Assembly: GCA_008632985.1 (NCBI GenBank)
Contig: QPGO01000145.1
Coordinates: forward strand, 62,001-126,000
Direction: 5' to 3'
From: Psammoneis japonica
Lineage: Eukaryota
DNA length: 64,000 nt
Part shown: piece by piece, positions 6,480 through 64,000 of the stretch
Position numbering within the stretch: the stretch's first letter is position 1
How the letters are laid out: the number at the start of each line of letters is the position of its first letter
Made by a program: the position numbers and the translations under genes
Notes under the pieces: generated by a model
What the model saw: only the letters and a program-made list of their open reading frames with translations
What the model was told of the DNA's origin: nothing
Database searches by the model: none

Positions 6480-9335
6480 GGGTGTCACAACGCAATCGTG
6501 TCATGAAGAAAGGTGTGACATCGAACACTGTCACACTGTCGCACAGACAGTCGGTCGGGTGTCAACGCGCGCGATTTAGGACGCGACGAATCACACGGTG
6601 CCCTGCCACTGTGCCACTTGGAAAACTGCACAAGGTGGTTCAAACTGGCAAGCTCTCATGTGGTTGATTTCTTGGAGGAACTAGGCAAATCACATGCATG
6701 GGCATGACACCGCAGTGTGAGAATTGCACCATTGAAAACTGGCCAAGAAAGGCAGAGCCCTCAGCTGCTTGCAAGTGGTGGGGGCAGCAGCGCTCGATTT
6801 GTAGAGCAGCACCCCCTTGCACAATGATCTTGGCGAGCTTCTCTCATCCTCACTCAGCATCTTAAGGAGTGCACAATTGGCTGGCAGTGGTGGCACCCAT
6901 TTTCAAGTCCAGTGTCAACAGGCAAAGAGCCGTGTTGCAGAGTGGCTTGTGCCAAAGACATGTGCGCTGTCACTGTTTCAAGTCATGTGAAAGCACAAAA
7001 TCCAAGCAATCTTGCACAAAACAAGGCAGCAATTGGCGCAGCTGTCAACACCAACAAAGAATCAAATGACTGTTGTGCCATGATGATGTTTGGTTGATGT
7101 GTGACGCTCTTGTGCTTGCCGCACTTTTTTGTCTCACGCAGCTTGTTTGGACATGTCTCGGGAAAGGGGAATTGGCAAAATGCTGAATTGTTGGCAAGAC
7201 TGCTTTGAACAGAAAGAGACAGACAGAAGCCAGGATGAGCAGCTTGTGGGGTGATGGAAAACAAGAAAATGGCACAACTTCAGACACCCATGGCCCACAA
7301 GCACTTGATTGTTCATGTGCACATGCATGCAATTTAGGGCCCCACTCTGTGGAACTGCTCTGTCTTTTTTCCAAAAATCACCCTGCTGTGTCTCCAAAGG
7401 CCTGCCCAAGAACATCATGCCCCCCAGCTCCATTTGTTGTGACTTGGGGCATCTGCCAAATGCTCCAAGCTGCAAGACTCTTGACAGCAATTTGGCCTCA
7501 TGGGCTCCTTGGTGGGCAGTGTGCTTGAGTTGTCCAGAGGTGGGTGGGAAGGCTTGCACAGCTCTCTGACAAGCTGCCATCTCACATTTGCACACAAACA
7601 AGCACCTTCGGCCAAGCTGTCAAAAATCTTCCTCTGCACAAAAAAGGTTTTCCACCACAAAAACCAGCAAAGCTTGTCTGGACTGCCATGCTTGCTTTTG
7701 GCATCTGGTGATGGAAGACAGGGAGCATGCTCACATGCCCCATCTCCCACACAGTCACAAGTTGTGCAGGACATGCTTGTTGCAAGGCCTTTGACAAAGA
7801 TGCAACAAAGCTAGAACAATCTGCACTGCTGCTGTGGGGGAACATTTCTTTTTTCTGCAGTGCAGAAGTGCAGCTTGCTGACAAGCTTCTTGTCTGTGCT
7901 CAGAGACACGTGCCTCTCTCACCTGTTGCAAATTCTCATGTGGATGCAGGTGTCAGAGACAAAGGCATTTTTGTTGCAAAATTGTGGCAGCAAAACAACC
8001 AACCTTTGGCGTCAACATGAACAAACTGCACAAGGTGGTTCAAACTGGTCATAGAGTGGCTTTAGATTGAGCTCCTGTGGGTGATCTCTGGGAGAAACTG
8101 GGCAAATGAAATGAGCAGGAATGATGCCACAATGCAAGAGTCACCCCACTGCAAGACAGCAAAAAGGAGGGCAGAGCTCACAGCTGCCCACAAGCAGAGA
8201 AAGGAGCAGCATTTGGCAAGGGGCAGCACCCACTTGAGCAGCAATCTGGGCAAAAATGCACAGATGCTCAGCTGTCTTGAGGAGTGCACAGTTGGCCAGC
8301 AGTGGCAACACTCACCCTTGAGCCCAGCGCCAAGAGGCAAAGGGCTGGGTTGCTCAGTGCAAGAATTGGAGTCATGCACGCAGCCCCCCACCAGGCTGGC
8401 CCACCCCTGCAAGCCCATTTGGCCTCATTCCATTGTTCACCATCCAGTTGTGTGGGATCAGGAAGAGAGAAAGCTGTGCTGATGCTCTGGGGCAGAGCAC
8501 ACCGTCTCCTCCACCACTCCAAGAAATTCTTCAACCTGGACTCTGTGTGGCGGCACGCTGCAGAATGGGGAAGACAGCAAAATGCCTGTCAACTGGCTCA
8601 AGTCTGCTGATTGACTCCTGACAAATGCCCTTGCCACCACTTGTGCTTTGATCTGCCTGCGGCCTGCTGCTTTGTTTGACTGGCACGACCAGGTCTTTTT
8701 GGTGCAAACAAGAAAAACTAAAACACAGTGGAAAACAGGTGGGGCAGTGCAATTTGGCAAGAGTGGCTTTGGACTGAGCTCTTGCAAGTGATCACTGCCT
8801 GGGAGAGACACAGCCACATGAGTCATGGGCAGCAGGCATGATGCAGGGCAACATGCTTGGGAGGAGTCAGCTCATGGCAGCAATTTGTTGGCGCACCAAG
8901 GCAGAGCTCACAGTCATCTGCAAATGGAGACAGCAGGAGCAGGAATGCCCACTTGTGCAACAATCTGGATGAACTTCTAGCACACACTCCAGGTCTGGAG
9001 GAGTGCACAGCAGGCTGGCAACGAGAGGCACAAAATGCCCATTTTCAAGTCCAGCACAGATTCTTCAAGAAGGGAGGCAAAGAACCAGCACATGTTGCGG
9101 TGTGGTGCAAGAGCTGTTGCTGGTTGTTTCGGGTGGGTGCCACAGAGTAGTGTTGGGACAGGACAATTGTTGTCTCCACTTTTGCTGCACTGCACAGGAT
9201 GAAGGTGTGTGTTGGGCAGCGCCTGTGCTGGTTGCCTTGCTTGGGACGGATGGAAAGATAGACACATGCCGAAAATGGACTCATGGCGCACACGACTGTC
9301 TCAGATAGCACTTTGCGAGCATCAACGCAACTCAC
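6480..9335. mobile_element. Heavily degenerated repeat/TE-derived block, TpA- and CpG-depleted, with internal ~707-bp periodic homology
   Basis: About 11 TA in 6601-9300. aaactgcacaaggtggttcaaactgg at about 6623 and 8023; ggagtgcaca at about 6866, 8281 and 9000; gagtggcttt..gagctc at 8054 and 8761. No intact ORF. Confidence 0.65.
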
Positions 9336-9584
9336 ATAGGGTAGGGTTGCCGGTATAAGGGCTTAACACTTTTGTTTGTTGTGAGTTTGAAGTTGTGATT
9401 CGCAATGCATTCTCTCTCGAGAACGACTTTGAAGATGCGTCTCTTCATGTGGACAACACTTACGGTGCATCTCTGCTTCTTGGATGGGCAAGAGGTGAAT
9501 GGGTTCCATCATCAAGCCTCTGGATCGCGTGCCTTTCACCGCGACAAGCGCGTTACCGCTCCAGAAGCATCCGTGGGGGGCTCC

Positions 9585-10779: not shown

Positions 10780-13700
10780 CTAAGTGATTCGGTTTGTTTG
10801 TTCAAAACCCTCTGGCTCTTGATCCTCCACCCACTGAAGATACTTTGCAACGATACCTTCTCCTTTCTCGGTCCATTCTTGGCGATTCTTAAGAGCATAA
10901 CCCAGGTACTCGTCACCCGCAGTTCCAAAAACACCGCACTCCTTCAACCGCTTTGCGAGTGGAATGATATAAAAGTCAAAGAATCCAATCTCAGATTTGT
11001 ACCAGTTCGTCCTTGGATCAACAGACGACAAACCATCGAGATATGCAACCATACGCTCTTTGAAGAGGCGCTCGTTCCACTTAATATATGTGATCCAATG
11101 TTGCATTGTATGGGCAATGTCGGATGCCAACATGAGCTGCTCCAAGACCGCTGTGGCTTTGAAACTAACATCAACCTTAGCAAGTTCCTCGACCGGCTTG
11201 TTCCGCCACTCGTCTTCCCACTGGGAAATGTGCTTGAATGCGACGTTCCAGCGTTCCTTCTCCTTCTTCATACGATCACTGTCCGCAATGTCTGTGGCAA
11301 TGATCATGTGGATGAGTAGTTGTTTGAACCGATGTCGGTCTTCCTTTTTCCCGAAGATGCATTTGCGAAGGTTGGGGAAGTCGGGCTCCATTAGCAACTC
11401 CCAGGCAACATGGATAGAGTTCTGTTCGGCAACACTAATGTTGTTGTATCTTTCTGCGAAATCGGGTCGACTCTTGATCAATTCCGTGTTTGTGATACCG
11501 AAATGGTCTACATCGTGGACCAACGCAGAGAACACAACGGCAAATTGCGCAAGGGGATCCGAGCTGATACCAAATGTCTTGAAAAACAAGTCAATTTCCT
11601 CCGCTTCTCCCTTCCTGGTGAAGCTTTGCTTGGGGTCCTTCCTCGAGCAAACTTTCCTCATCAATTTGTTTGCAGACATGAGAACATGACAGGCATGCTC
11701 AAAGCTGTGAAAGTGGACGTTTCGATATAGGGAAGCAATACAAGCAACGTAAAATTGAAGCTCCTCGCTGGCAGCATCTCCAATCGATTCGATGAGTTCG
11801 GAACTTTCAATAGGATCTCTCTGTTTTGGCTGGTACGTAGCAAATGAAACTTCGTCGGTGATTTCTTCGACAAGCAGGTACGGGTTCTTTGGTTTAAGTG
11901 GATTATCTCCTGAATGCTGGGAAGCATCCGATGAGGCCCTCTGTCCACCCGAAGCAAAGGATCTGATCGATGTTGCGAAATCTCTCGAAGAACGCCTTTT
12001 CTTGCGTAACGCTGCTTCTCGTTCTCTCTGCTCGTTTACCTGTCTGTGAACCATCACCTTTAATAGCAGGTCTTCTAGAACGGCAGCGTTCCATTTGACC
12101 AACCGGTTCATATCATCCTCTGCAGTACCAATGGCTGCGAATCCACGTGCCATTTTTCGCGCCTTTGCCTCCTTGTCCAACTCATCATCAAGTTCCCAGC
12201 CAGCAACGCTTGGGTAAACCGTGCTTTCATCGTTTGTGTTTACACTTGCTTGCGGAGACGTCTTTACTGCGGATCTTGGACGAACCCAGTATGCTGTTCA
12301 ACGAGTCAGTCGTGAGACGCACAAAAGTTAGGAATGAACGCATGGCAATGTCAAAGCAAAAAAGAGATTTCCGCGCAACTTACTCTGGATTTCTCCTTTG
12401 CCCTTCGCGGTAACAATATCTGGTCGAAGGGACAACCAGTGTTCCTTTCCACCTTCCTTGATCAACGCCGCTGTTTCAGGGGATGCCTGAATCTTGTTCT
12501 TCACACCAGATGATTCCATACGACTTGCAGTATTCATAGTGTCGCCAAAGAGTTGAAAGCGACTCTTCTCACCCCTCAATACGCCTGCTGTAACGGCACC
12601 GCTGTGGATACCGATACGAATACCAAGAGCAGCTGTGCCAGGTCCAAGGGATATCTCAAGCTCCTTTGTTAATTCGATGAACTTGACGAGGCAGCGATAC
12701 GCGAATCGCGCCATGACAACAGCGTGGTCCTCTTGAGGATCTGGCAACCCTGTTGCAGCCACATAGCAGTCACCAATGGTTTCAATTTTAAAAACGTTGT
12801 ACTTCTTGGCTTCAAGGTCAAATTCTCTGTAGATGTTTTCCAGTAGCGTGAAGACTTGTGATGGTTGTCGCTCGGAACTCCAAGCTGTAAATCCGGCAAT
12901 ATCAGCGAACAGAATCGTGGTGTTTGGAAACATGTCGGCGATTGGTTCGCCAATGTCAATCGATGACATGGCCGTTGATTCGTCACGTCTCTCTTGTGGA
13001 CCGCTAAGAAACTTCTTAAGCCTTGCGTTTGGATTGCTGCTAGTAGAGACAATGCCCGACGCAGAGCGTTTATACCTTTTTGGTCGTTGCACTTCGTTCG
13101 TCGAGAAGAGTCGCTCGCGAACAGTAGCTGGAAACAAGGAATGAACAATCTTGCTTGTTTGAAGGGCCCGGTTCATAATAGCGGCTTGACGATTTTCGAC
13201 AAGGCAGTCATATGCGATGAATGTCATGGAAGTGAAGAAGAAAATAAGTGCCACAATGACGCAAAGGATCACAGGCATGCTCGTTACATATGTCTGCTCA
13301 AAGACTCTTGTAGGATAGATGCGAATTTCAAATGAAGCATCAGTAGAGTTTGAATGCTCGGAAGCATCAGCCGTAGCAATTGAAGGTTGATCCTTCACAT
13401 TGAAGTCATTGGCCTTCTTGAGTCTTCGTAGGCCTGGTCGGCCTCCTGCAACCACACCGTCTTCGTCCGGCATGTTGTATCGATAACGGAGTTCCATGTC
13501 GTCGTAACGTCGATCATGAAGATCACCAGGGCCCTGAAACTCTGCATAGGCACCTTCAAGGCTGTAGGTGAACTCTTGTCCATCCCCAGCATTCAACACC
13601 ACAGACAAACCCGCCATGTTATCTGGCAACAGCCTCCTGAAGTTCATACTCCAATCAAAATCAATGCCGATGGTTCCGACCACCGTTGTTCTGGTAAAGT

Positions 13701-14793
13701 CCAGAAAGATTGGACTAAACAAAATACCTGTGGGTTCCCGGTGATGCTCTCGATTTCTTGAGTGGTAATCCCAGTCTCGATACAAGAACGTTGTGATGGA
13801 TGTCCTTTTTGAGTCCAGCATTCTGTCTATAGCCGCCCTACGAAGCGGCTCACTGTATTCGTTAAAGAGAAAACCACCAAGGTTGATGTTTCTCGGAGCA
13901 ATATGCCAAACAGGAAAGTAGTATGGATCTTCTTTTCCGGTCTCTCGCTCCCGCTTTCCTTGTGCGTCAATCCTGTAGACGCCTTGTTTAATCTTGGAGT
14001 GAATACTATCATCTTGTGGTTGTCCAGCTTCAGTCTCTGGCATGTGCTTGTAGACATTGCGAGCATATGCATTCCAGGGATGAAACGTCGCCTTGGTCAA
14101 GAGCGGCGCAAAGAGCACAGCTCTTGAGTGTGCCATTATGTTTGTTCCCTTGGTTTGATCGTCAAAGTCAGTCATTGTAACATTTGGCCAAACGGTATGC
14201 TCGTTGCCATACGTATCCATTTGAGTCGCCACCGTCTCGGGTGAAAAGCGACTGGTAAAGACACTGGCCAACGTGTAGGCCGCCCATACTTTGGTATCCA
14301 TATTGTGTATAAAGCTCTCGATAGCCTTTCTCGAAAAAGTATCATACTGAACACTAAAGTCTTTTTCCTCGTCCGTCTTGGTGAAATGCCACACCAAAAC
14401 AGACACCAACACGGTCGCACAGACAAGCATCACCACAACGGCAATCTTGACTCGATTGACCGCTCTGTTTCTCGCTAGCTGATTGAATTCTTCTTGAATC
14501 TTGGCATCATGTCCACCATCGTTGGTCTCTTCCATCATTTCATCGTCCCATTTCTTCACAATACTGTCTTCATCCTCTTCGACGAGACCGTCTTCGACGA
14601 GTCTTCGTATACTCTGCTCGACATTCATTCTTTTGGACATCATGGTGGAAGTTTGACGCAAAAAACCATCGCTATTTGTGACTGTAAGAGCAACGCTCTC
14701 ATGCCCGTCTGGTAGCTCGGACTCATCCGTAACGGATTCCTCGGGCAAGGGCGCCAATGGACGACGTGTGCTCAGTTTGCTTGATCTCGGCAT
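10780..14793 (-). CDS. Receptor-type nucleotide (guanylate-like) cyclase fused to an HD-type cyclic-nucleotide phosphodiesterase; exons 14793-12384 and 12293-10780
   Basis: Same cyclase motifs as the paralog. A GT-AG intron at 12294-12383 keeps the frame. PDE motifs FHSFEHACHV, HDVDHFG, IATD, ASDIAH and GFFDFYIIP. Confidence 0.92.
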
Positions 14794-15480
14794 GGCTTTG
14801 TTGTGACGATGAAATGACCACAAAGCCTCTTGAGTGAAATCTTGATTGAACGCTTTTGGTGGTGACCAGCAATGCCTCTCAAGTCAATGTGGTCTTGATT
14901 CCTCACCAGGCCCTTTGGTGACCTCGATAATGGAGAAAACGAGGAAAAGAGAGAAGCTTTGAAGCGTGAGCTTGCAACAATTAGCCCCCGAAACATTATT
15001 ATGTGTCCGATTCGTGGCACAATCGAGTGTCCCGGATTCATTCGCGAAGATTTCGAATTGAAAGATGTCTTGGGGCATAAGTACAACACGTTAACAATGA
15101 CTATTTTATGTCATTACCGTCATTAACGATAGGTCGCACATAGTTGAGGTGTGACCGGACACAGGTGTCCCATCGCAATGGTTGCATAATAGTATACGAG
15201 TACCAATATATTCAAAATGTCATATTTGTAAACAAGTCATATGACTTGTAAATGACCCATAAATGTTTTTTGTGAGAGACAGAGAGCGCTTTTTTCATCT
15301 GTTTGATTGTGTGTTTGACTTTGAAAAAGTGCGTGTGGTCTCCGCCTCACTTCATCACATACACACTAAAAATCTGAATCGACACCGCCCGTTGTGGCAT
15401 CATTGTAACAGTATGTCGCTGTTGCTGCTGTTTATTATTTGGTACCATATCATAAGGCTCGGTGTAAGGCGTGAAGGATA

Positions 15481-18854: not shown

Positions 18855-19217
18855 GACTGTAATGAAGCTGACATGGAGGAGGATTGCTTGTGTGCTTTGT
18901 GTGTTGTTTGCACAAAATAGTGGGTTGGTTGACACTTGATTGACACTCCAAAATTGACACCTCATTGGCATGTGGGAATGACGTTGGCGCTTCTCGTTTT
19001 TTGACACCGCGCGTCACGCGGCTTCAGTCTTGCAAAAGCAAATGTCGTTAAGCAGTTAACGGAAGCTTATTTAGGGGTTCAGTTGATTTCCTATATGATT
19101 TCTATCCGAAGTCTGTCCGAAGTCGTTAATTAATTGGAACCAGCAGGACAAAATGCGTCGAGCATATGCACTCACCGCACGATGCGATGGAGAGCCCGTG
19201 CGAAGATTTGTGCATGC

Positions 19218-19455
19218 GTACCGGTACCCTCTGCCGGTACTCTTAGAGAGTAGCTACAGTACTCTCTCTACTCTACTCTCTCTCTCTAGAGTAGAGAGTA
19301 GCTACTCTACTAGAAGGGGGCGTACAGTAGACTCACGATGGACGGATTGGAGAGTGTATCTAGAGTAGCTAGAGCCCTAGAGATACCGGTAAGGGCCCTC
19401 TGTCTAGAGTGGAGCTAGCTAGTAGGGAGACTGTCTACAATAGAAGTACCTGTAC
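19218..19455. repeat. Low-complexity TAG/CTA/GA-rich patch
   Basis: gagagtagctacagtactctctctactctac...ctagagccctagagataccggtaagggccctctgtctagag. Confidence 0.75.
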
Positions 19456-22700: not shown

Positions 22701-22773
22701 CAATCGCTAAAAAAAGTTTGTGCAGTTGGCGATTTCGCTAAATGACATTGGCGAGAACGGCTTGACGTTGAGT

Positions 22774-23130
22774 CGTGCGGTAAAAAAAAAACAGCTTGAA
22801 CAGCTCAACTTTGCGTCGTCCGGTAAAAATGCTGTTCGCACACAGCATCAGCGATTGCTCTCTGATGCCATAAAAAACCACCATGGCCTGTGCTGAGTCC
22901 TTCTTTCTTCCCTCAGGGCTTCGTATGATGATCGGATGCTTGGCGGAGGGCGGAGGATGTGGAACGCTCAAAGACAAACGTCAGCATGGAAAACGTCCGT
23001 CGGCTCTCATGCTGAAACCAAGAGGGTTTTGATTTGCCTCAACGGCAAAAGTTTAACGTCTCCGTTGCCGTACGGTAAAAAAGAATGCCATTTTTTTTAC
23101 CGTCCGGTAAAAAACAACTGCTTGAACGGC
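22774..23130. repeat. Clustered motif CGT(C/G/A)CGGTAAAAA
   Basis: Copies at 22774, 22817, 23069 and 23101, plus an inverted partial copy at about 23091. Confidence 0.6.
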
Positions 23131-23490
23131 ACGCGTTTCGGCGATCTGGTGAAAAAGAACTGCTGGCACGTCAGACGTCCGAGCAAAAGCGCGCGCAAAT
23201 TTTATGCGACAGCCGACCGTTGAACACATGTGTCCTTCTCTTCGATGTTGCATGCTGTTCAATGGAAAACAAGGTAAAATTGCACACCGTCTGGGCGGAC
23301 ACCCTGTTTTCCCGTGGTCTCCTGGGGTCTTGGGTCTTGAGTGATCATCGTGCGCTCGTTGCCATCGTCGCCAAGGATTTTCGAATTGGCAGAAAAGGTG
23401 CATCTTTTCATTCTCTGTACACTTCGCACTGGAAGGTGCGATGAAGAATCTTTGATCGAAGCTTGGAAGCTCAGGGAATCAGGGAAGCCA

Positions 23491-31665: not shown

Positions 31666-31685
31666 AGCTGATGGGAGTGGGCTGA

Positions 31686-47904: not shown

Positions 47905-47930
47905 GGTGTCTGTTTTGTGTCTCTGCGCCG

Positions 47931-49737
47931 TGTCTTGACAATTCACACTCCTTTCTTCACAGGCGTGTGTGCTCTGAGAAACTCGCGCTCGTCTGCGTCT
48001 GCCTGCTCTGCCCTCTGTCGGGCACCTCCTACCATGAGGGTGCATGTCTAAGTGTGCCGCACCAGCAGCAACAACCATGCAACAAACCGCCATGATGTTA
48101 ATTGTAAACAAGTTATTTGTTGATTCATTGACCGCCCTGTTGCCATGATCCAAGATGAGACAAAAATTTCACAAGCAAGAAGGATGTGAACTGGGGAAGT
48201 CTGGTCAAAAGTCGAGGGGTGACAAGAAAAGAGAAAAAAGCAGCAAAGGCCGCTGACAGATTGCACTGTGAGGGGCACAGCATGCTCCCCACACTTCTTG
48301 GCACCACTGCTGATAAATCAGTGAAAACCAGCATTTCTGGGCCAGCTGTCCAGCATTTGATTGACAAGCCATCACAGCACAAACGACTTGTTCCAGACTT
48401 AGGTGCACTCACGCGCGAAAAAATGACCCTTTTTGCATGAAACGCGCGGTCCACACTTGCGGTACCATTTTCGATAGTAAAAACATAACAATTTACAAAT
48501 GTGTTGTTATGGGTACATACAGAATTGTCTTGTGCGTGTACCCATGTATTCGAAACTGTTGATGGACTCAGTTATTAGTCGCTAAATTGTACCGTAAGTT
48601 GAGAGCTCGAATTTTCCGATGAGCGATTTATATATGCCTAAATGTAACAAGAAACATATAAAATATTATTCATATATATAAATTAAGTCTTTAACATAGC
48701 ATAATTAATATTTTGTTTTTATACGCGAATATGAGTTACACTCAACGGATCGAATAAAGCATTCGTTGATTAATAAGTTTAGGACGACGTGAGAAGAAGT
48801 GTAGCTCAGCCCACGCAATGGCGTCGACTTCGGACCATTTTTCACGGTTTAAAAGGCATAAACGATTGATACACTTGAATCAGTCGAATATATTGAGGAA
48901 ATATACATGGTAATAGAAAAGAAATGGTCCTTAGAGGCAAATTGTGAGTGAATAGAGGCTCAATTGTTGTTGCTGACAGATTTAGCATTATTGTGCCGCG
49001 CTGCAGCCTTCAACAAGCATTTTCACTATTGTTGTTGATGACACAGACTATATCAAATACGTAGATCGTGGTCATGACATTCAATTTTCCATAAGGCTGA
49101 AAAAAGTGGGCCGTCATGGTCACTGAAAGCCATGGCCGGTTTGGCTGTTTGTTTGTTCGAGTTTATTCTGTTTATTTTACTTATAAGCCATTGATATGAT
49201 CAATTTTATTAAATATGTCCGGTGTTCAATATAAAGCATTAAAAAATTATTTTTTCTGCGAAAAGGGGCATGTGCGCGCCACCTAAGTCTGGAACAAGTC
49301 AAACAGCCACCCACACTGTCTTTCCCAGATGGCGCTGCTGCAGCCAAGAAACGGCATGAGAGAAAATGCACCCAAGCTCTCTTGGAGAGACACCACAGCT
49401 GCTTTTTGAAAGAGCAGGGGATTCAGATTGGGTGCAAAGGGGGGGATCTTGTGGTCAAATCATGCTCTGAGGAAGAAAGAGGTGGCTGCAACTTGTCTCA
49501 AACGTTGAGACAAGCAACGAGTGGGAAGCTGACAAATTTAAAAGGCACCAGGCCAAACGTTGAGCCAGTGGCCCCTGTTCAAGGTCCAGAGCCACCAAAC
49601 TTGGAATGCTTGACACTTCAAGACAGTGGCCATGTAAGATGTTGAGATGCCTTTGCTTTCTTGCCGCATTTGCCAGCATCAGCCGCCGAGCCAGTGGAGA
49701 GAAGTGCGCCAGGCAGCAGCCATCAATTGTCAAAACA
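47931..49737. mobile_element. Dispersed repeat, copy B (homolog of 39890-41193), interrupted by a 916-bp MITE
   Basis: Colinear homology to copy A; termini tgtcttgacaatt / aattgtcaaaaca. Confidence 0.8.
48385..49300. mobile_element. 916-bp non-autonomous DNA transposon with perfect 21-bp TIRs and a 4-bp TSD (AAAC)
   Basis: aaac|gacttgttccagacttaggtg ... cacctaagtctggaacaagtc|aaac. The empty site is seen in copy A (cacaagcagcc). AT-rich non-coding interior. Confidence 0.93.
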
Positions 49738-49739
49738 TC

Positions 49740-50350
49740 AACAAGCTCACACACCTCATGCTGACACCTGCAGTTGTTGCTTCAAGGACAAGGACAAGTG
49801 CAAAAGCCAGCAGAATGACACAAACAACATGGCAGCTGTGCCACCAGCTGGGCTGGCCTTTTCACAAGATTTTGATGATGTGATGGATGGGCCTCAACAC
49901 AACAGAAGAAATTTCTTTAAGGTTGCTTTGTTGGCCAAGGCTGTGTCACATTAAAGAAACTTGTTTGTTTGTGACAAATGCTTTGCTGCTGCTGGCACTG
50001 CACTCCAAAGACCTTGTCACAGCTTTTGCAGCAGAAGAAGGGGTGTGCAGGAGGCTTTGCTGGGAGATGGCAGCACTTGTCCACAACAAGACCAGTTGAG
50101 TTCAAAAGGTGTGCTGCATGGAAGTTTGCTTTCTGGGAAGAGTGCAGAGCTTTTCTTGATTTCAGGCAGCACAAAAGATGGTTGCTCAGCCCGCCCTTCC
50201 CCCTGCTGAGAGGGGGAGAAGCTGTTGCTTGAATCTCATTTGTGGCCATTGCCAGAGTTAAGAACAAACCATTGTGTTGATGGTGGCTGAAAAAGAGAAA
50301 GACATGTGATGCCAATGACTGTCCCGTGATCATAGAGGAGACAATGGGAG
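49740..50350. mobile_element. Degenerate TpA/CpG-depleted TE-derived block
   Basis: TA survives almost only as ttaa; no intact ORF. Confidence 0.5.
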
Positions 50351-51142
50351 CCAATCAGCTGAGGATCGATGTGGGGTTGCCGGTGCTGGGCGTGTCGACT
50401 GTCGCCTGGAGCAGACTATGAGCCCGGGAACCAGAAACCCGGGCGTGCTCTAAATCGGCACTGGCGATAGGGCCCTCTAGAAAGTAGGTCTACACACACT
50501 ACACTGCTTCTTTTCTCTCTACTCTCTTAATTAAGGGCTGCTTCTACGAGAATTCAGGCGACCTGGGACTGCCTTCACATTGTGGCAACCTTTCTCCTCA
50601 CGGAGATCGTCACTGGCGGAAAGATGTCACGTAGATTTCAGCCGCTTTATTGGCGACCTCCGTAACGAGATCCCTCGAAACTGCTGTGGCGTCACTGACG
50701 AACGATCTGCCGACCATTGCGCCATTACGCCCGGCATCAAGGAGTCGCTCACCGCGACTTTTCTTCATGTGGCGACTGCTGGCAGATTTAGCGTAAGAGT
50801 CAGCTCGCTTTCGACATTTTCTCATTGTATTCGAGGAAGCCATGGTAAAGTATGGTGAATGATAGCAATTGAAGAAACTGTGGTTGTTGCAATGTAACCA
50901 ATGGAACTCAGAACAAGAAATTGAGAAGTAAAAGTGTGAACGCGAGACCGACAGGCACGCACAAAGCGCGCGTCCTCGGTCTGCGTGGTCCGAGAACTCT
51001 TCAAACCAGTTACAGCATTCGCAATAGCATTGTAGATATCTTTTGGCAGAGATGAAGCTCGGAGTCTGATCTTAAATTCTTCATCAACATCACAACGTTG
51101 TAAATGGAAGCAAGTCGGAACAACCACCCGTGAATTCCTTTT

Positions 51143-53425
51143 TCAAAGACTGCGACAAGGGCCACTGCCTCTGCATGAAATGTAACAAACAACAATAAAC
51201 TCTGGACAGTCAAATGTTCCCGTAATTTCGTTTTCATTAAGTATCAAGTGACTTTAGGAGAGCAACACAAAACGATGCGAGAGCAAAACAGTGAGACACA
51301 TCCTCCTAGTGCAGGCGGGATCGGAGTTTTCTTATCCAAAGCGTTCTAACTATATCAAATAGCATTGCGAGATACTCACTTAAAGTGCTCATCGACTCAA
51401 ATATATCTGGTATAGTTCCGACGAGGGAATTCGCATTGACAGCGAACCATGCTGCTCGTAGACCGGAGAACACAACACGTGAGGATCATGATTGCGATCT
51501 TTCTGCGCTAGGCTTGTTTCACTTCAACTTACACATGTTACTCATATCGCCGACCTCTGTCGGAATTGTTCCTTCCAAGCGATTATCATAAAGCCAAAAC
51601 AGATCTGCGTCAAAAGCAATAGAGCGAAAATGGTGGTTGTTGAGAAAAAGATGCGAACAGAGATGACATTCAAATTTACACAGCTTTGAAAGCTTGTGCG
51701 AAGCATGGCCACACAATGGATGCTCACCGACATTGCTTAGGAGGCCAACTTCTGACGGGATAGTGCCTTCAATCTCATTGCCGTAAAACCTCACATCCCC
51801 TTTACCAAAGGATGAAAAATCAACAACACACATGTTGGATCCAAAACAACACAAGAGACGAAATGTCAAAAGCAGCACCGGCAGCAACAAAAACGTACTC
51901 AAATACGAGAGCAAGCCTAGCTCGGGCGGGATGGAGCCACTCATATTAATGGAGGACCGTCCGAATCGGCTCACATGCTCCCCGTCGTGGCACAAGCTTG
52001 GAAAGCCACTGACCCAGTCACACTCGTCCACGTCCGTCAACCAATCGGTCGACCAGGTCCAATCCTCACCATTGGTGCTGTAGTACAATGTAGCAAGCGC
52101 ATAGCGTTGTATTTTTCTCCAGTCCGGATACTGTTGCAAGTTAGCATTCCCTTGCAACCACGACAGCGCACGAGACTGTGGCGATGACCCGTCCTGTAGA
52201 GAGGCACCGTTGTCAAATGAGACTGAAACAATCAAGTCCTCGAGACTTGCAAAAGTTGCGGCGATTGTTGGATTTGGCGTAGGTAGAGGAGGAGGACGAA
52301 AAGTAGGCTGTGCCGTTGGTAATGGTAGTTTGGAAGGCGGCATCATCGTGGGGGGTGGTGTCGGTGGCAGAGTAGTAACAGACGGCGGGGACGCAGGAGA
52401 TGTGGAAGGTAGGTCCGAGGGAGGATTTGGGAATACAGAGGGCATCAAACCGGATGGCTGCAGAGTGGAAGAGGTGGGTCCAGGAGTGGATTGCGTTCCA
52501 CTAGTGGAGGAATCAACGCCACCCGATTCCTTACTGCTACCTGCCACCACCGCTGCTACAATAACTGCAACCACAATGGCAACAACAGTAACGAGACCCC
52601 CTACCAGAAAGCAGCGACGTTTCGTGCTGCTGGCTTCATAGCAGTGCTTGCCTCTATTCGATTCTTGTCGCGATGGAACCGCTTCTTCTTCATCATCCTC
52701 ACGACGTGGAGTTTCGACGTTGTTGCTTGATGTGGCCCCTGCCTGCTGTGACAATGGTGTGCCAAGAACAACCGGTCGTCTTTGCATCTCTTCCTGCCTT
52801 TCTCGGTACTCTCGAAGCTCACGAAGCTCCTCATAAACATCGTTGCCTTGTACGGGTACAGCATAAGCGGTCCCAACCTCAATGGCGCTGCCGATCGTGT
52901 CCTCCTCGTTTTGGTTGCTACCAGGACCAGAAATCGCAACCGCTCCTGGGCGGACACCAGAGCTCGCAGCTTGGTTTCTTGTTGGATTGGTTGTAACCGC
53001 TGGGGGTTCAGCTTCATCATGGACACGTGGCTGGAATTGAAGTTCAGCCTGAGCTGAAATGTCGTCAGTGCCATCATGCACTCTATAGTTCCCCACCTCG
53101 ACGCTTTGCTCCTCATCTGTGTTCCTCCGCATAGCACTACTACTAGGCTTGGATTCCCCTCATCCGTAGAGTGTCGCGATCTACCGGGTCTTCTCGTTTC
53201 CATGCCATGAGAAACTCGGGTATCTGTCTCATTGGTAGTTCTTGGGGTATGTTCGAATTGGTTGTCTCGTTGGTAATGCATTTCCGTCAAATAGGCTCTC
53301 TCCTTCTCGGCATAATTATCTTCCCTAACTCTCTGCTCACTATCGGTTAGCATGTTCATCTCTTGCGGGTACTCCTCTATTTCCCTTGCTTCTTCCTCAT
53401 CTTTTGGCCTTCTACTTCTTTGCAT
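51143..53425 (-). CDS. Type II membrane leucine-rich-repeat protein (diatom LRR family), multi-exon; frameshift near 53157
   Basis: PGAVAI motif, TM helix, Pro-rich stalk, SPQSRALSWL...QRYALATLYYSTNG..W...WL....ECDW cap, and LRR exons GSIPPELGLL, EGTIPSEVG, EGTIPTEVG and VGTIPDIF. Last exon ends CRSL* at 51143. Confidence 0.85.
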
Positions 53426-53999
53426 CTTTCTTCGCTGTAACTGTGAATCGTAGACGAATAATCGATGAGGAACGTACAGATGATTCTTTTGTTGTAAGTC
53501 TTATTACTTGGAGCTATAGTAGCACCGGTTCCGTTGAAAAGTGTTTGCTTGTTGCCGCCACGCACTGGACTTTGGAATAGAGGACGCGGGGGGGCCGCTT
53601 TTTTCCAGGGATAGTGCCACCTTCAGTAGACTATACGAGATATATCACGAACAAAAATGTGACGGGGCCCGCCGCGGGGACGGATGCAGTCGTTTTTTTC
53701 TGAAATCGCTCCGTACCAATTACAGACCTCCCAAGCTGGGAGTGCTATGCTCTATCCAAAGGACGCCCGCCACCGGCATGCAGTTAGTAGTTGCCGCGTG
53801 AACGCGACGTCTGTCGGGAGCGAGACGGGCGATCGATCGAACAAAAATGCCCATGTTACGAAAACTAAAATCGTCGTAAAGCAAAAACCGTTTTTATTGC
53901 GGCAAATCATTTTTGCACAGCACGCGAAACCACGTTCTTTGTCATTCAATGAGGAGAGAGTCAGCCAATCAAAAGTTTCACCTCTCAACTGATCCCTGA

Positions 54000-55740
54000 T
54001 CAGCGCAAAGCATGTGTGGTCACAAAAAAGAGCCCGTTGCCACAACACCTTGGTGGATCCATTGGGTGCAACAACAAAGCACTGCATTGCACTGTGCTCA
54101 CACAGCCAAATTGTCCAGCTTCTCTCTTTCTCCTTTCAAATGGCTCTGTGTCTGTGCCATTTTTTGTCATCCAGAAAGAGCTGCGGTTGTGTGTGTCAAG
54201 AACGAAGTTGCTTGCTTGTCCCCAACCACAAATTGGAGCACAGAGGTGCACCAACGAAGAACAGGGGGGGGGGGGGGCACCGCTTTGTGGTGAGCAAGGT
54301 GGTGCAGTGGTCAAAGTGCAAAGCCCGCAAAGGCAAGCTCCTCATCTTGTCTCTTTCATGCTTTGCTTGGAACTCATTTTTTGGCAGCACCTTTTTCAAA
54401 GCATTTTGATGAGACAAACATTTGTCCATTGTTTTTTGCAAGAGTTCCAGCCATGTGGATTTGGTGGAAAATGCCTCTCACATCCAGCTGGGTGGAAGGT
54501 TGCTGGTTTCCAAGATGATGGGGCACTTTTGGCTGTTTGCTTTGGCACAGACAGCATCGTCCCAGCCCATGACATTTTTTCATTGCAGACACCAGCACCA
54601 CCAGCAACAGAGCATTGCACCTGGTTGTTCCTTCACTGTGCTGCTGGCTTTCCCATGCTGCACTTTGCCTGGTGCCAGGTGCCAGCCCCATGAGCGACTT
54701 GGCCATTGAAGAAAACTTGATGCCCCAAACTCCAGGCACACTGGTCTTTCACACTGCTTAAAATGCCAAACCTCTGGCAAGATGACATGCTTGCTCAACA
54801 TGTTTGGTGAAAAGCTTGCTGCTCAGCCATTTCCCTGGACAGCACTCTGACTGTGTTCCACACTGTTTCTCTTTTGTTGCTGAAAAACTGTTTCCACGAG
54901 GTGCTGCTGAGGCATCATCCCGGTTGCAAGGGAGAGGGTCTTCATGTTCCATCACAGGCATTGCCACCTTTGCCCCCACTCCTCCATTTGATGCTGAACA
55001 AAACTTTGCAGCCAAAGCAGCTGCTCTGCCCTGGCATGTCTGGCACTCACTCTCAAGCTGGCAACACCAGAGCAGGGGGAAAGAAAGCATCAGCCTTGGC
55101 AAACAAGAAGAAGAAAAAACAAGGGGGGAGAGTAAAAGGAGGAGCACACTCTTGTGTCATTTGCTCTCTTTTGCCAATGTCTGTGGTGGCAAAAGGTCAG
55201 TTCTGTGAAGCATTTCAATGGACCACAGATGCCGGCACCTTTTTGACAGCCTCCAAGAGAAAAACAGCATTGGCTGTTTGGTGTGGCTGAGAGATGAGGG
55301 GGGTGTGTGCATGCCACTGTGTGGTGACATCTGCGCAACATCTGCACACTGTCTCACAACTTTTTCCTTCTCTTTCAAACCTTTGTGTCTGCAAATCGAG
55401 CCTCGTTTCATGTTGCTTCTCTGCACATTACAGAGTCTCTCACAGTTTGCAAGAAGTTCGGTGTTCACAATTGCTGAGACAACAACTGCGACCCCACTTG
55501 CAAGTGTGTGCTGGCACAGCACTGAGTGCTGCTTCCCAGAGCTTCCTTGCTAGAAGGGAGAGAAGGGGCATCTCTTGCTGCTTCGCGAACAACAGCTCGC
55601 TGTCGGGTGGATTCCGAGCGGTTCCCGTGTTCGGTCATTGGGGGACATGCGTGCTTGTCGAAAAGGTCATCGCCAGCTGTTCCGGGAATGCCCAAATCAA
55701 AATGACCAAGACAAATCTGCCAGTCATTTCCTCACATAAT
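54000..55740. mobile_element. Degenerate TpA/CpG-depleted TE-derived block
   Basis: Only a handful of TA over 1.7 kb; many overlapping Cys/His-rich, Tyr-poor spurious ORFs. Family not identifiable. Confidence 0.55.
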
Positions 55741-55843
55741 GTGATGCGAACATAACATGCCACAGAAATAAACTGGAAACGCAAGGAAAACACACGAAAC
55801 AATGAAAACAAAGACAGTCACAGTCCTCTTCTGATGTTTAAAT

Positions 55844-56818
55844 ATGTGTAGAAAAGATATCGACATGACGCTTGATCAAAATCGAAGACAACGAGATGGT
55901 CAAAGACGAGCCTTGATCACAGTCGGCAGCTGGCCCATGCTCATTGCTTCCCTGGTCATGTTTGGAGGATCAATTCTCGTCTCGCAACAAGTCACAGTAA
56001 CCACGGTGCAACCGCAATCAATAGAACAGCGAATCACAAGGACAGAGACTGTACAATATCCACCCGTTCTGTATGGCTTTGTTCACATGGCGAAAACAGC
56101 CGGAACAACCGTCAATGGAGTGCTCGCTGCCAGGTATGAACGTGTTTGCGGAAACAAGGGATACTCGTACGATTCCTTTCAAACCAATCTTCGATTCAAC
56201 AACGAAACTTCCATTCGAGATCAAAAAGACAGTATTTCACAAATTCGCGAGGACTACAACCGCGGCCGATTGCCCTTGTCAATCATGAATGAAATTGGCT
56301 ACGAGGATTGCGATTACGTGAGTGCCGAAGAGGATTGGAACGACTTTTGGGTGGAACGGTTTTCCAAGTGGCACTTGCCACTCGAACTCCACGTGCCATG
56401 CCGAGAACCGATAGATCATTTCATGTCACAATGGAATCATCGGCACCGATGGCCCTTTCGTTGTCATCCTCCCAAACATATTGATTTGCTCGGGGAAGTG
56501 GACACGAGTATCAAACGAGTGCGCAATCGATTTTCCATGCAACTACAAAAGCACGACAATATTCACTTAAAATGTTTTGACTTTTCCAACACAACACAAT
56601 ATCTCGAGTACATGGGAGAACGATTGCAGGACAAGCGACTCAAGGGAGATTACGTTTTTCGATCTACCAATTCTCAGAGAAACAAATCAGAAGAGTGTAT
56701 ATGGCAAGATTCTGCGGTCCGAAAAAAAGTCCATGCACATTTACTGGACAAATATGACTATTATAAATTTTGCAGCAAGTGTCTTGGATCAAAAGACGAC
56801 TTGCTAGTTGGCAAGTAG
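55844..56818 (+). CDS. Type II membrane sulfotransferase-like protein
   Basis: N-terminal TM helix; PAPS-binding-like FVHMAKTAGTT; REPIDHFMSQWNH (3'-PB-like). Confidence 0.7.
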   Translation: MCRKDIDMTLDQNRRQRDGQRRALITVGSWPMLIASLVMFGGSILVSQQVTVTTVQPQSIEQRITRTETVQYPPVLYGFVHMAKTAGTTVNGVLAARYERVCGNKGYSYDSFQTNLRFNNETSIRDQKDSISQIREDYNRGRLPLSIMNEIGYEDCDYVSAEEDWNDFWVERFSKWHLPLELHVPCREPIDHFMSQWNHRHRWPFRCHPPKHIDLLGEVDTSIKRVRNRFSMQLQKHDNIHLKCFDFSNTTQYLEYMGERLQDKRLKGDYVFRSTNSQRNKSEECIWQDSAVRKKVHAHLLDKYDYYKFCSKCLGSKDDLLVGK

Positions 56819-56865
56819 CTATCCGAAATATGAAATCTCCTATTCTTGCCGAAATGTGAAATCTC

Positions 56866-58343: not shown

Positions 58344-60491
58344 ATGGCACACATTCTTTCCGCTGTCGAAGGTACGCACAGCACTGCTTACCGAAGAAAA
58401 CGTGTTCGTTTTGATTCTTGATTGAAAAAAGACGAGCGATCCGTTTGGGAACACATTAAACGGATGTGTGAATACGCACCATCAAGTTTTGTGTCGTTTG
58501 ATTCGCAAAATTGTGAGATTCCGTTCTCTTACACTTTCTACATGCGTTGTACCTGTTCCATGGAATCTCGATGATTTGAATCTTTGCTCACATTTTGCGC
58601 CTTCTCATTTTTTGCTCATTTTTTCTCATCTCTCTCTCTCTCCTCCAATTTCAAATTCAGGAGACACAACGGACATTGTTCCTATTGAGCGAGCTCTCAT
58701 TTCGGTTTCCGACAAGACAGGCATTGTCGAGTTTGCTACCTTTTTGGCTTCTCAAAATGTCGAGTTGTTATCCACGGGAGGAACTGCGAAAAAGCTTCGC
58801 GAGGCTGGTTTGACCGTCAAGGATGTTTCCGAGTATACCGAATCGGTCGAATGCTTGGACGGCCGTGTCAAGACGTTGCATCCCAAGGTTCACGGTGGAT
58901 TGTTGGGAGTCCGTGGCAATCCCCAACACGAAAAGGAAATGAAGGAATTGGGTATTTCCAAAATCGACATGACCATTCTCAATCTCTATCCCTTTGAAGC
59001 AACCGTTGCCAAGGAGGGCAGTACCTTTTCGGATTGTACTGAAAACATTGATATCGGTGGTCCCAGCATGTTGCGTTCGACCGCCAAGAATCATGCCTTT
59101 ACCACCATTGTCACGTCTCCGGATCAGTACGACGAGATTGTCGAGGAAATCAAGAGCAAGGGTGGAACGTCGCTGGCACTGCGCAAACAGTGTGCGGCAC
59201 GAGCGTTTGCGCTTTCGGCTAGTTATGATTCTGCCATTGCCACGTGGTTTTCCCAACAAGATTTGGGTGGCGGTAGTGGTGCTCCTGCCCCCGTGGTGAC
59301 TCGCGTGTACAAGCCCGAGTTTCCGCTAAAATATGGGTGCAATCCGCATCAAAAGCCTGCTCAGATTCTAAGCAAATCCGGTCAGCCTTTGCCTTTACCG
59401 TAATTAACGGTGTACCGGGATACATTAATCTCTTGGACGCCGCCAATGCCTGGCAACTTGTCAAGGAATTGCGTCAAGCCACGGGTTTGGCATCCGCTTC
59501 GTCCTTCAAGCACGTGTCCCCCGCCGGTGCTGCCGTTGCCGTACCCTTGACCGAGGTGGAATGCGCCGCCTACGAAGTCACTGCGGAAGCCGCTGCGGCA
59601 CTCACTCCCACGGCATTGGCCTATCTCCGAGCACGCAACGCAGATCCCATGTGCTCGTTTGGGGACTTTTGTGCCGTCTCGGATGAAGTGGACGAGGATA
59701 CCGCAAAGATTCTCAAGCGTGAAGTGTCGGACGGAATCGTCGCTCCGAGCTACACGCCACAAGCATTGGAATTGCTCAAGACGAAAAAGGGCGGCAAATT
59801 CATCATTTTGCAAGCCACGCCCGACTTTTCACCCGGTGACGTGGAATACCGTGAAGTGTACGGCATGACCTTTTCGCAAAAGCGAAACGACGTGATTATT
59901 GGCAAGGAGCATATGGAAAACGTTGTAACGTCCAAAAAGGACTTGACAGACGCGGCCATTCGCGACATGATTGTTGCCTCCATTTGCATAAAGTACACAC
60001 AATCCAACTCGGTCGGCTTTGCCAAGGACGGCATGATGGTGGGTGTCGGTGCTGGACAACAATCTCGTGTCGATTGTGTCAAGCTGGCTGGACGCAAGGT
60101 GGCGACTTGGTATTTGCGCCAACACCCCAAGGTGTTGGGATTGCAATTTAAGGATGGTGTCAAGCGTCAGGATCGCGTCAATGCGCGTGTCCGATACATT
60201 GAGGGAGACTTTACGGATGAGGAACGTGTCCGATGGGAAGCGCAATTCACAACCGTTCCTGACCCCCTCACGGCCGAGGAAAAGGATGCCTTTCTCAAAG
60301 AATCGACCGGTGTCTGTATTAGCAGTGACGCCTTTTTCCCGTTCAGGGATTCGATTGATCATGCTTCCAAGTTGGGTGTCACCCATGTTGCGCAGCCTGG
60401 TGGAAGTGTTCAAGATACACAAGTTACAGAAGCATGTGATGAGTACGGTATGGCCATGTGCTTCACCGGCGTGCGTCTCTTTCATCATTAG
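58344..60491 (+). CDS. purH: Bifunctional AICAR transformylase / IMP cyclohydrolase; intron 58372-58660; apparent 1-bp deletion at 59394-59396
   Basis: RALISVSDKTG, STGGTA, GRVKTLHP, ENIDIGGPS, LKYGCNPHQ, PGYINLLDA, SFKHVSPAG, KYTQSNSV, GAGQQSR, SDAFFPF, QPGGS and RLFHH. Confidence 0.97.
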
Positions 60492-62071: not shown

Positions 62072-62299
62072 ACATGTCAATTATGTGCAATCTTTATGGA
62101 TGGAAGATGCAAAGTGTCTCTTACAAATTATAATTCAAACCATTAGGCATCCCCCGAAGCAACCGCTGTGGGCTTGGATCCACGCCTGATTGCGACTTGA
62201 ACCGAACAGTGACCGACACTGGATGACGCTCCCCAAAGAAGAGTTGGATCTCACTCTACTAGATTTTCTTGATCAATCAAATCATGTCTGATATCACCC

Positions 62300-64000
62300 G
62301 CAACCACTGATGCTGGGCTTGTGTCAAGCCTTCGCAGTGCCACCAGGACGGGGGCGGGACGCCTTTTGGAACCTTTACAACCATTTCTCCTTGGGCCCAA
62401 CAACCCAGGTGACATAGCCACAGTGGTTAAGACACGTTCGACTTTACTCTCTCATCATGACAAAGTGCAAGTTGAGGCAAAACAACATGTTGTCAATGAA
62501 GCGTCTCTCAAGGAGCATGACTGTGGATCTGGAGACAGGCTTCATCAGGACTCAGACAATGGCCTTGGCCTTGCTGCACAATGACTTCTTGGCCTGCATC
62601 ATCTTGTTCTCAAGGATTTCATTGAGCAATCCAAGCCACAGGGCAGCACTGCACAAGTGCAAAAGATTGCCATGGCAAACAAGCAAGCATGTGCAAGATT
62701 GTTCACATGCTGATCAGGTCAAGAACAAATGCTGCTTTCCACCAAAAGAGCACAACAGGATCTGACAGAAATGGTCATGCAAGAACCCATGCCCATGTGT
62801 GAAGGATGCAAGAACACCTCTGCAACAACAAGTTGGTGCAATGACTTCAGCACAGTGTTTTCCTGGGTCAAATTGAGAGACAATGGGACACTTGTGTGCC
62901 CAGGTCTTTGGCATGACAAGTGGGTGGGCCAAAGCTCTCTCTGACTTGAAAGAGGCTTGCGCCCAGCAGAAGTGGCTGAGTGCACTGACACACCCCACTG
63001 TCAATGATCAGTCTGCTTTTCATCAATGGTGGATGGTGGGTTCCCTGCAAAGCTGCTGCATGCAGTGAAACACTTGTGGTCACAAGCACACACACACACA
63101 CAGCAAAAGTGCAGGACATGGGTCCTGAAGTCACACAAAGAGTTTGTCAAGAGATCAATGAGGCCAACTGCAATTGCTTGTTGCCAGGTGTCATTGACAA
63201 GGAGATTCAAGCTGTCAGAAAGGGCACTCAAAATGGCCAATGATGACACCAACTTGGCAGAACAAATCAATTGCCACCACCTGACACTTGATGGCTCCTC
63301 CAGTGCCAACATGTGCAAGGGTTGCATCAAGAGACAGCACACAGGTTGCACCCATGACAAGCAACAGCACTCAATGAACTGGAAGCCAAGATGGTTGACA
63401 TTGAAAATGCTTGCACCATGGCCCGGAGCAGCAACAGAATCTTTGCAACAAAACCCCAGCTCCAGAATTTGGCTCAGATGATGGGAAGAAAAGGCCATTT
63501 TTGCGTGCACCCTCTGTGGCTGGAAAAGTGCAAGTGAGTCTTTCAGAAACCATCTGGCTTCCGGCACACATCACTTGGGGTGGAAATGTGTCCAGCTGGC
63601 CATCACATGCAGCCAAAGAGGAGAAAATGTGACTCCACAAATGGGCTCAAGCACTGCACAATTTCTTTGCTGTGCATTGATGATGACATGTCACACCAAC
63701 AGTGCACCACAATGCCACGAAGACATCAAAAGAGCTGGGTTGCTGTTTCAAGAATCTGAAGCCCAGCTTCATCATGTGCGACAGAGACATGGAGCAAGAT
63801 GGTCCAGTGGGGGGTGCCAGCTCCACACAACATCAGTGACAGCAAGCAAATCATGTCATTTTTCCTTTGCCAAGTGGCTTTGTGAGGGGGGTTGTTGGGG
63901 CTCCTTCTTTGTTGTGGCTGAGTGCAGCTGCCAGGAGGCAAACTGACCAAAGTCTGTCCATTGCCCCCCAAGCAGGCTTGGGGAGGCCAAAGAGTTTGCC
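62300..64000 (+). mobile_element. Degenerate TpA/CpG-depleted block, probably a retrotransposon relic; runs off the window
   Basis: Essentially no TA after about 62450; possible RT-like CIDDD at about 63673. Confidence 0.55.

Follow-up and report, generated by a model that had tools for sequence, protein, structure and literature searches.

About a fifth of the 64,000-bp stretch of the Psammoneis japonica genome analysed here (contig QPGO01000145.1, positions 62,001 to 126,000; hereafter the window, whose own coordinates are used throughout) consists of sharply delimited blocks that are depleted in the dinucleotides TpA and CpG and rich in TpG and CpA. The best explanation, which we hold to be probable, is that two dinucleotide-specific transition processes rewrote transposon and satellite-like relics in place, both of them ending in TpG/CpA. 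The first would change TpA into TpG or CpA, the A opposite or next to T being replaced by G on either strand, whereas the second would change CpG into TpG or CpA, a decay that is ordinarily to be expected where repeats are cytosine-methylated. Both would act on particular elements, within sharp borders and on each copy independently, and would last until nearly all TA is gone; Tyr, Ile-ATA, Leu-TTA/CTA and Val-GTA codons would thereby be erased, and copies would diverge fast.

Blocks were called by a two-state segmentation on pyrimidine–purine (YpR) steps over the 64,000 bp, scanned in 500-, 100- and 50-bp profiles. Eight converted blocks, covering 12,745 bp, were obtained:

6599–9243: flanked by genes for a fatty-acid hydroxylase and Sir2; 10 TA and 26 CG in 2645 bp
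21268–22702: TA and CG both lost; 6 TA and 12 CG in 1435 bp
40697–43652: first of two blocks in a relic of a long interspersed nuclear element (LINE)
43927–45201: second block in the same relic
48138–48381: left part of a second LINE fragment
49290–50321: right part of the same fragment
53940–55549: intergenic, with a border in bins 53.90–53.95 kb; 3 TA and 17 CG in 1610 bp; the terminal stop of frame 1 is TAA
62453–64000: runs off the end of the window; 0 TA and 7 CG in 1548 bp

Together these blocks contain 39 TA, 135 CG, 1421 TG and 1485 CA. The strand-symmetrised observed/expected ratio (O/E) is 0.05 in blocks versus 0.55 in host DNA for TpA, 0.17 versus 1.00 for CpG, and 1.83 versus 1.19 for CA/TG. 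Expressed as frequencies (blocks versus host), TA amounts to 0.0031 versus 0.0378 and CG to 0.0106 versus 0.0568, while CA and TG reach 0.1141 each versus 0.0742, so that a TA+CG loss of -0.081 is balanced by a CA+TG gain of +0.080. The dinucleotides AA/TT are not depleted (frequency 0.0745 versus 0.0786; O/E 1.21 versus 1.15), and the lower O/E of AT in blocks (0.77 versus 0.95) fits the loss of AT inside ATA/TAT. The longest TA-free runs measure 1555 bp (at the block 62453–64000), 864 bp and 807 bp; at the host density of 35.9 TA per kb, i.e. one TA per 28 bp, the expected number of runs of at least 500 bp in 64 kb is 4e-5. An initial annotation, which had counted about 11 TA by hand in 6601–9300 and 3–4 per 100 bp in neighbouring genes, agrees well with these figures. 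Its attribution of the TG/CA richness to TpA holds for one part of the excess, but the strong loss of CpG had been overlooked, and the excess thus has two sources.

Block borders are sharp to 50–100 bp (one or two 50-bp bins), and host genes and open reading frames (ORFs) lying 100–400 bp beyond them have a normal composition, as had been claimed from the bare sequence. The host CpG O/E of 1.00 spans synonymous sites as well as intergenic spacers. All internal stops in the frames read through two blocks are TGA (4/4 in frame 1 of 53953–55755 and 6/6 in 62453–63997), as would be expected once TAA and TAG are gone; accordingly, the long open frames found on both strands of converted blocks are no sign of coding. 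Of the regions listed in the initial annotation as nearly TA-free and TG/CA-rich, 21.2–24.9 kb proved fully converted only at 21.27–22.70 kb, 24.2–24.9 kb being host-like in composition, and 32.1–33.9 kb proved ambiguous. Two TA-poor stretches were therefore kept apart from the blocks:

22703–24200: zone of TpA loss only, adjoining the block 21268–22702; O/E 0.23 for TA, 1.05 for CG, 1.36 for TG and 1.37 for CA
32000–34050: ambiguous TA-poor stretch, not counted as a block; O/E 0.16 for TA, 0.72 for CG, 1.19 for TG and 1.38 for CA (CA/TG thus 1.2–1.4)

The second of these is purine-skewed, A+G making up 68% of the + strand, and is an unclear case: it is TA-poor, but its richness in CA/TG is not clear-cut. 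Two patches show the opposite composition (19200–19450 and 31530–31680; O/E 1.27–1.31 for TA and 0.75–0.77 for CA/TG) and are made of CTAG/TAGAG/GGTACC-like words, e.g. runs of CTCTAGAGTAGAG; the latter patch adjoins the TA-poor, purine-rich stretch at 32–34 kb.

The bases themselves were checked against Logan contigs (31-mer contigs) built from a single public run, X1. Word depth in this run is 61.9–70.6 in most single-copy bins, in host genes and blocks alike, with one border bin at 27.9. The X1 contigs differ from the window by 0–2 positions each, reproduce the TA/CG-free blocks, and span borders between block and host at 44020–47981, 49276–53740 and 54342–56000. As multi-kilobase, nearly error-free 31-mer contigs need accurate reads, a miscalling of modified DNA, for which the initial annotation had asked that reads be consulted, is unlikely. 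Six single-base differences between X1 and the window fall inside blocks (40775, 41919, 42946, 49490, 55222 and 55429), three of them of the footprint type (CG/CA at 42946 and 49490, TA/CA at 55429); these six may be alleles or assembly errors. In another run, X2, parts of host genes are covered and blocks are uncovered except for the satellite, which has no bearing on expression; among the runs listed as containing the stretch, none is of RNA.

The direction of change can be read from the LINE relic. An ORF on the minus strand, 41386–42453, has a single relative, through which 33 longer proteins were reached; these are about 1900 amino acids in length, 20 of them with an RVT_1 domain and 10 with an AP-endonuclease domain. 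To judge from these sequences, the family is a LINE family of the APE-RT-RNaseH-Zn type, about 1900 amino acids long when intact. A hidden Markov model (HMM) built from 34 family proteins matched the window only at 41623–45571, and tblastn and HMM together map family positions 495–933, 1188–1267 and 1537–1800 to 45571–41623 of the minus strand. The features concerned are:

40486–45600, minus strand: 5'-truncated, internally deleted LINE relic (tblastn and family HMM)
45571–44250, minus strand: its reverse transcriptase (RT) part
42405–41623, minus strand: its C-terminal part
48138–48384, minus strand: second LINE 3' fragment, left part, converted, with 80% identity to 40584–40804; 1 TA and 2 CG in 244 bp
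49301–50321, minus strand: second LINE 3' fragment, right part, converted; 5 TA and 10 CG in 1032 bp

Within the right part, 49378–49737 is a paralog of 40824–41193 (79% identity). TpA is lost along the whole length of the relic, while CpG is mostly kept in its 5' 400 bp (45202–45600; O/E 0.2 for TA and 0.6 for CG).

In an alignment of the 34 LINE family proteins with three relic segments, Tyr is present in 40% or more of the family at 12 columns; there the relic has Cys (7), His (2), Phe (2) and Val (1), and never Tyr. Only one of its 783 residues is Tyr, versus 2.5% in the family, yet Trp is retained in 18 of 23 columns (p = 7e-8, binomial, and 5e-8) and Gly in 26 of 37. The Cys and His noticed at Tyr positions from the translations alone are thus borne out. 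For comparison at the codon level, 79 related LINE loci from metagenomes were taken from the best 80 of 454 matches, a choice by which converted copies elsewhere would be passed over. Codons containing TA make up 1.0% in the relic versus 8.2% in these loci, codons containing CG 4.4% versus 9.5%, and all the predicted product codons are raised in the relic (TGY, CAY, ATG, ACA, GTG, GCA, CTG, CCA and TCA). Since all 79 loci have a TA O/E of 0.48–0.89, and the family 2.5% Tyr, the family is not natively TA-free, a check that the initial annotation had called for, and this candidate explanation was ruled out. Suppression of CpG and UpA as in RNA viruses was also rejected, its effect being far too weak and the relic broken, as was ultraviolet damage, since the pattern lacks dipyrimidine placement.

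Taken together, these results support a change from TA to TG/CA (A:T to G:C). The evidence for its restriction to an A preceded by T is indirect; DNA-level polarity could not be drawn from the relatives, the nearest of the 79 loci sharing at most 42% amino-acid identity with the relic and giving no useful blastn match. The initial annotation had considered error-prone repair by Pol-eta, as in the WA to WG signature of somatic hypermutation, where TA and AA are both mutated. The absence of AA depletion in blocks disfavours this signature, whether due to Pol-eta or ADAR-like.

It is DNA that is changed, on either strand and in each copy independently. In the LINE relic, Tyr to Cys represents a change on the sense strand and Tyr to His one on the antisense strand, and both occur; likewise, TG and CA are about equally frequent on the LINE sense strand (489 versus 474, summed over the two LINE blocks). 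Duplicated sequences within the blocks point the same way, as a CA opposite a TG is the trace left when a single ancestral TA or CG is hit twice, independently. Of 43 adjacent double transitions in 1423 aligned columns of block paralogs, 26 are such CA/TG doublets, versus 6 of 16 in 1308 columns of host-gene paralogs, and the ratio of transitions to transversions is 158:80 in the former versus 145:169 in the latter. In the block 6599–9243, a unit of about 340 bp is present three times in direct orientation, the copies having diverged (6623–6944, 8023–8359 and about 8760–9054). Moreover, conversion is found in a tandem array:

43604–44048: satellite-like tandem repeat, partly converted; period 336 bp, 1.3 units in the window

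Its summed depth in X1 reaches 55,000, with 'goes back' joints, and the satellite gap has an O/E of 0.36 for TA and 0.88 for CG. The units are 86% identical; the substitutions between them are all transitions (15 in number), 13 of which lie in YpR steps, and include 5 CA/TG doublets. Among read-copy variants at 43681–44009, all 15 listed exchange TA or CG for TG/CA (p = 3e-4). As tandem units can only duplicate as DNA, these differences arose by change in place at the DNA level. The Tyr columns, codon usage and paralog doublets hence uphold the claim of a TpA to TpG/CpA change on either strand, opposite in direction to fungal repeat-induced point mutation (RIP).

Repetition by itself, which had been proposed as the trigger, does not explain which sequences are converted. 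Two young multi-copy elements lie in or beside the relics and remain unconverted:

48385–49300: young 916-bp miniature inverted-repeat transposable element (MITE), nested in the LINE 3' fragment, with perfect 21-nt terminal inverted repeats
39941–40485: 545-bp palindromic MITE-like element, beside the LINE relic

The 916-bp MITE is flanked by AAAC on both sides, and the paralogous locus shows the empty site. Its O/E is 0.85 for TA and 1.34 for CG (48382–49289), and its read-copy variants are mixed (6 of 15 of the YpR type, 7 transversions). The 545-bp element has long subterminal inverted repeats (39950–40042 and 40386–40484), an O/E of 0.48 for TA and 1.11 for CG, and is missing from the paralogous locus, where the empty site lies at 47981–48003. 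As a measure of copy number, depth was totalled across those contigs that are 90% or more alike: the X1 depth is 1700–3700 for the former and 4130 for the latter versus about 62, i.e. about 30–60 and about 65 times single copy. Repetition alone is therefore no trigger, and conversion is specific to the element or locus; it is neither genome-wide, nor purely regional, nor triggered by repetition alone.

The losses of TpA and of CpG do not coincide everywhere, which is why two processes are proposed. TpA is lost with normal or near-normal CpG at 22703–24200, at 45202–45600 and in the satellite; TpA-specific conversion thus appears to be separate from, and faster than, the decay of methylated CpG. 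Among the metagenomic LINE relatives, three loci (L062, L078 and L079) show CpG depletion alone (O/E 0.30–0.37 for CG and 0.72–0.75 for TA), and another (L055) has the lowest TA O/E of the 79 (0.48), with 1.46 for CA/TG. As for the chemistry of the TpA process, the most likely would be that a TadA/ADAT2-like enzyme deaminates adenine to hypoxanthine; the natural transfer RNA substrate of such enzymes also has a U before the target A. The blocks would presumably be cytosine-methylated, chromatin or small RNAs could provide guidance, and the process may have a role in defence.

The claim that no such process had been described stands in part. A search of the literature, with most subscription journals outside its scope, found no description of TpA hypermutation in diatoms or other stramenopiles; however, a 2026 preprint has measured TpA-only hypermutation in Bigelowiella natans. 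In that work, 230 of 231 mutations found in two integrated viral regions of mutation-accumulation lines were A to G or T to C, all on TpA, at a rate of about 6e-7 per site per generation versus 3.5e-10 elsewhere; coding sequences low in TpA were enriched in RT and DDE domains, and an ADAT2-like adenine deaminase was proposed as the cause (Mettrop et al., bioRxiv 10.64898/2026.01.13.699255). A term search of that text found no mention of CpG or of diatoms (10.64898/2026.01.13.699255). The likeness to the window is close: TpA only is changed, into TpG or CpA according to the strand, in foreign or selfish DNA with normal host DNA next to it, and the long-term footprint consists of reduced TpA together with raised CpA+TpG, the low-TpA genes including reverse transcriptases and DDE transposases. 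In the window, too, A to G and T to C changes occur at TpA, other A contexts seem to be spared, and the targets that could be identified are selfish DNA (LINE relic, fragment and satellite), with normal host genes nearby. The differences lie in the targets, which in that text are inserts of nucleocytoplasmic large DNA viruses (NCLDV) and virophages, whereas in the window they are a LINE relic, a satellite and relics of no assigned origin; in the host lineage, stramenopile-like and intron-poor in the window; in the extent, near saturation here (TA frequency 0.003 over kilobases) versus 3.3% in the NCLDV region described there; and in CpG, also lost in most blocks of the window. A de novo rate is given for B. 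natans only.

Other known systems resemble the blocks less. RIP of ascomycetes shares dinucleotide-specific transitions on both DNA strands, selfish or repeated DNA as target, ruined coding and a strong footprint. However, RIP turns CpA/TpG into TpA, whereas the blocks destroy TpA and have CpA/TpG as the sink: instead of a rise in TpA, the O/E is 0.05 for TpA and 1.83 for CpA/TpG. RIP is triggered by repeats of a few hundred base pairs with high identity, and yet the 916-bp MITE and the 545-bp MITE-like element are unconverted despite their high summed depth. Decay of CpG through 5-methylcytosine (5mC) fits the block CpG O/E of 0.17 with its matching gain of TpG/CpA, and also the CpG-only loss in related LINE loci; between the two LINE paralogs, 14 differences oppose CG to CA/TG. 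It is, however, unable to remove TpA, and TpA loss in the window reaches stretches of normal CpG. Genes for DNMT5 and the RID-related DNMT4 are reported to be widespread in diatoms (PMC9998398). The footprints of animal ADAR and APOBEC likewise consist of transitions that lie in clusters and have become fixed in retroelement copies of the genome, and are attributed to restriction-factor deaminases, but they are strand-asymmetric, partial and made before integration, whereas the change in the window is strand-symmetric, has gone almost to completion, keeps strictly to TpA and extends to tandem DNA repeats. ADAR acts on A preceded by U or A, and APOBEC3 in TC/CC contexts. Instead of the A to G change on the transcribed strand only that ADAR would leave, Tyr gave way to both Cys and His, and TG (489) equals CA (474) closely. 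The window is best regarded as a second case of TpA-specific hypermutation of selfish DNA, far closer to saturation than the first, in another lineage and superimposed on CpG decay.

Four other explanations have to be set against the two-process reading. A single enzyme system, e.g. a chromatin-guided dual deaminase of A and C or a YpR-step-specific activity, could convert both TpA and CpG in silenced DNA. It would agree with the fact that TA and CG are lost together in most of the 12.7 kb and that their joint loss equals the CA+TG gain, and the B. natans preprint refers to reports of ADAT2 enzymes editing A as well as C in DNA (10.64898/2026.01.13.699255). Nevertheless, such a system is at odds with the three places where TpA is lost and CpG is normal or nearly so, and with the CpG-only loss in related LINE loci of other organisms; the searched text on B. 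natans is silent on CpG, and ordinary 5mC decay is enough for the CpG part, so that we consider a single system improbable. There might also be no targeting at all, the blocks being old unconstrained DNA at the equilibrium of a general mutation bias against TpA and CpG, and host DNA being kept from it by selection. Although TA is under-represented in the host too (O/E 0.55) and CA/TG is the commonest doublet in host paralogs as well, a host CpG O/E of 1.00 that includes synonymous sites and intergenic spacers argues against this bias, as do the MITE families, which keep TA and CG and vary in a mixed manner, and the borders sharp to 50–100 bp. Furthermore, a relic that loses Tyr in 12 of 12 columns while keeping most Trp and Gly implies a rate at TA far above that elsewhere. 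A lack of targeting therefore seems quite improbable.

Editing before integration, in which LINE RNA or cDNA would be hyper-edited (by ADAR-like A-to-I editing or during reverse transcription) and then inserted, could be invoked because the only block whose origin is known derives from a retrotransposon, because converted zones stop at the ends of the element and because most conversions are common to the two LINE 3' paralogs. But the sense strand carries both outcomes (Tyr to Cys 7, Tyr to His 2; similar TG and CA), AA is not depleted although ADARs edit after U and A, the satellite units, duplicated as DNA, show the same changes, and the CA/TG doublets between paralogs need independent hits on opposite strands; conversion is moreover about 95% complete, far above hyper-editing levels. 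This route is very improbable. As to an artefact of sequencing or assembly, with TA and CG truly present and modified bases in repeats miscalled, modified DNA can indeed give systematic miscalls on some long-read platforms, and X1, the sole run set found, may be the assembly's own sample. Yet contigs from X1 alone (word depth about 62) give the same TA/CG-free sequence at a depth equal to that of the host, the LINE relic also shows deletions, frameshifts and non-YpR substitutions as in true decay, and copy variants segregate among reads, which makes an artefact extremely improbable.

Several points nonetheless weigh against the two-process reading. The analysis covers a single 64-kb window of one genome. 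The CA/TG doublet is the commonest in host paralogs too (6/16), and the three pairwise comparisons inside the block 6599–9243 are not independent of each other. Between the two LINE 3' paralogs, only 6 CA/TG doublets occur in 756 columns, fewer by far than would be seen had all conversion come after the duplication, so that most conversion is shared and either predates the split or was inherited from a converted source; conversion seems to have run both before and after that split. A transposon origin, which had been claimed for all blocks, is established only for the LINE at 40.5–45.6 kb and its 3' paralog at 48.1–50.3 kb, no homolog having been found for the others. No deaminase or other candidate enzyme lies within the window, as already remarked from the initial inspection. 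Finally, the accuracy of the X1 reads is itself inferred from the multi-kilobase, nearly error-free contigs, and X1 is possibly the window's own assembly sample, in which case it provides no independent biological replication.

Searches of the converted DNA for other homologies gave little. Pfam yielded no credible match in 15 block ORFs or in six-frame read-throughs of 40.6–45.7, 6.55–9.3 and 21.1–24.5 kb; the sole row of these scans, a FAM217 match (E = 0.19), is at chance level. The read-through of 62453–63997, with X at stops, had no relative among 1.84 billion representative proteins, and tblastn matches to the LINE at 63445–63586 (E = 0.002) were discarded because the HMM did not confirm them. 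The host genes of the window are long and nearly intron-free and encode cyclases, a phosphodiesterase, Sir2, purH and DUF4116 proteins. One gene pair, a cyclic-nucleotide phosphodiesterase and a CHASE-domain adenylate/guanylate cyclase, is duplicated (3–3223 and 10780–14883), its copies being 68–75% identical at the DNA level (13–362 versus 11531–11877; 812–1384 versus 12376–12948). The purH gene (MGS and AICARFT/IMPCHase) is split over overlapping ORFs in different frames (58426–59403 and 59277–60491), which implies either a frameshift or a short intron. Among the purH-containing proteins of 708–2020 amino acids that were searched, the best named match is from an oomycete (67% identity), with dinoflagellates at 57–64%; this coarse placement makes the organism SAR- or stramenopile-like, and a diatom plausible. 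The two LINE relics have two adjacent genes for DUF4116 repeat proteins between them (45772–48168), and the stop-to-stop frame of the second gene overlaps 47932–48095, a segment whose paralog is the flank of the first LINE relic.

To our knowledge, targeted mutation of adenines in the nuclear DNA by the organism itself was not known from any eukaryote until 2026, and the sole earlier report is a preprint on one chlorarachniophyte with a modest long-term footprint. Here, the TpA to TpG/CpA signature has run nearly to completion in transposon and satellite relics standing beside intact genes. If this holds genome-wide, the process would be no quirk of one species, and transposons would be hit as well as viral inserts; a simple sequence scan for a shortage of TpA coupled with an excess of CpA+TpG would suffice to detect it, and such genomes would be a natural source in which to look for a DNA adenine deaminase or some comparable activity. 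As converted relics escape Pfam and homology searches, repeat content is likely to be under-annotated in genomes where the TpA process operates. A bolder reading, which we regard as unlikely, is that of a heritable, chromatin-guided base-editing defence ('RIP in reverse') in a stramenopile alga, turning TpA and CpG into TpG/CpA until selfish DNA can no longer be read, with an adenine-editing core shared with Bigelowiella. Were it true, adenine deamination of invading DNA would be an old defence of the stramenopile–alveolate–rhizarian (SAR) clade or of eukaryotes.

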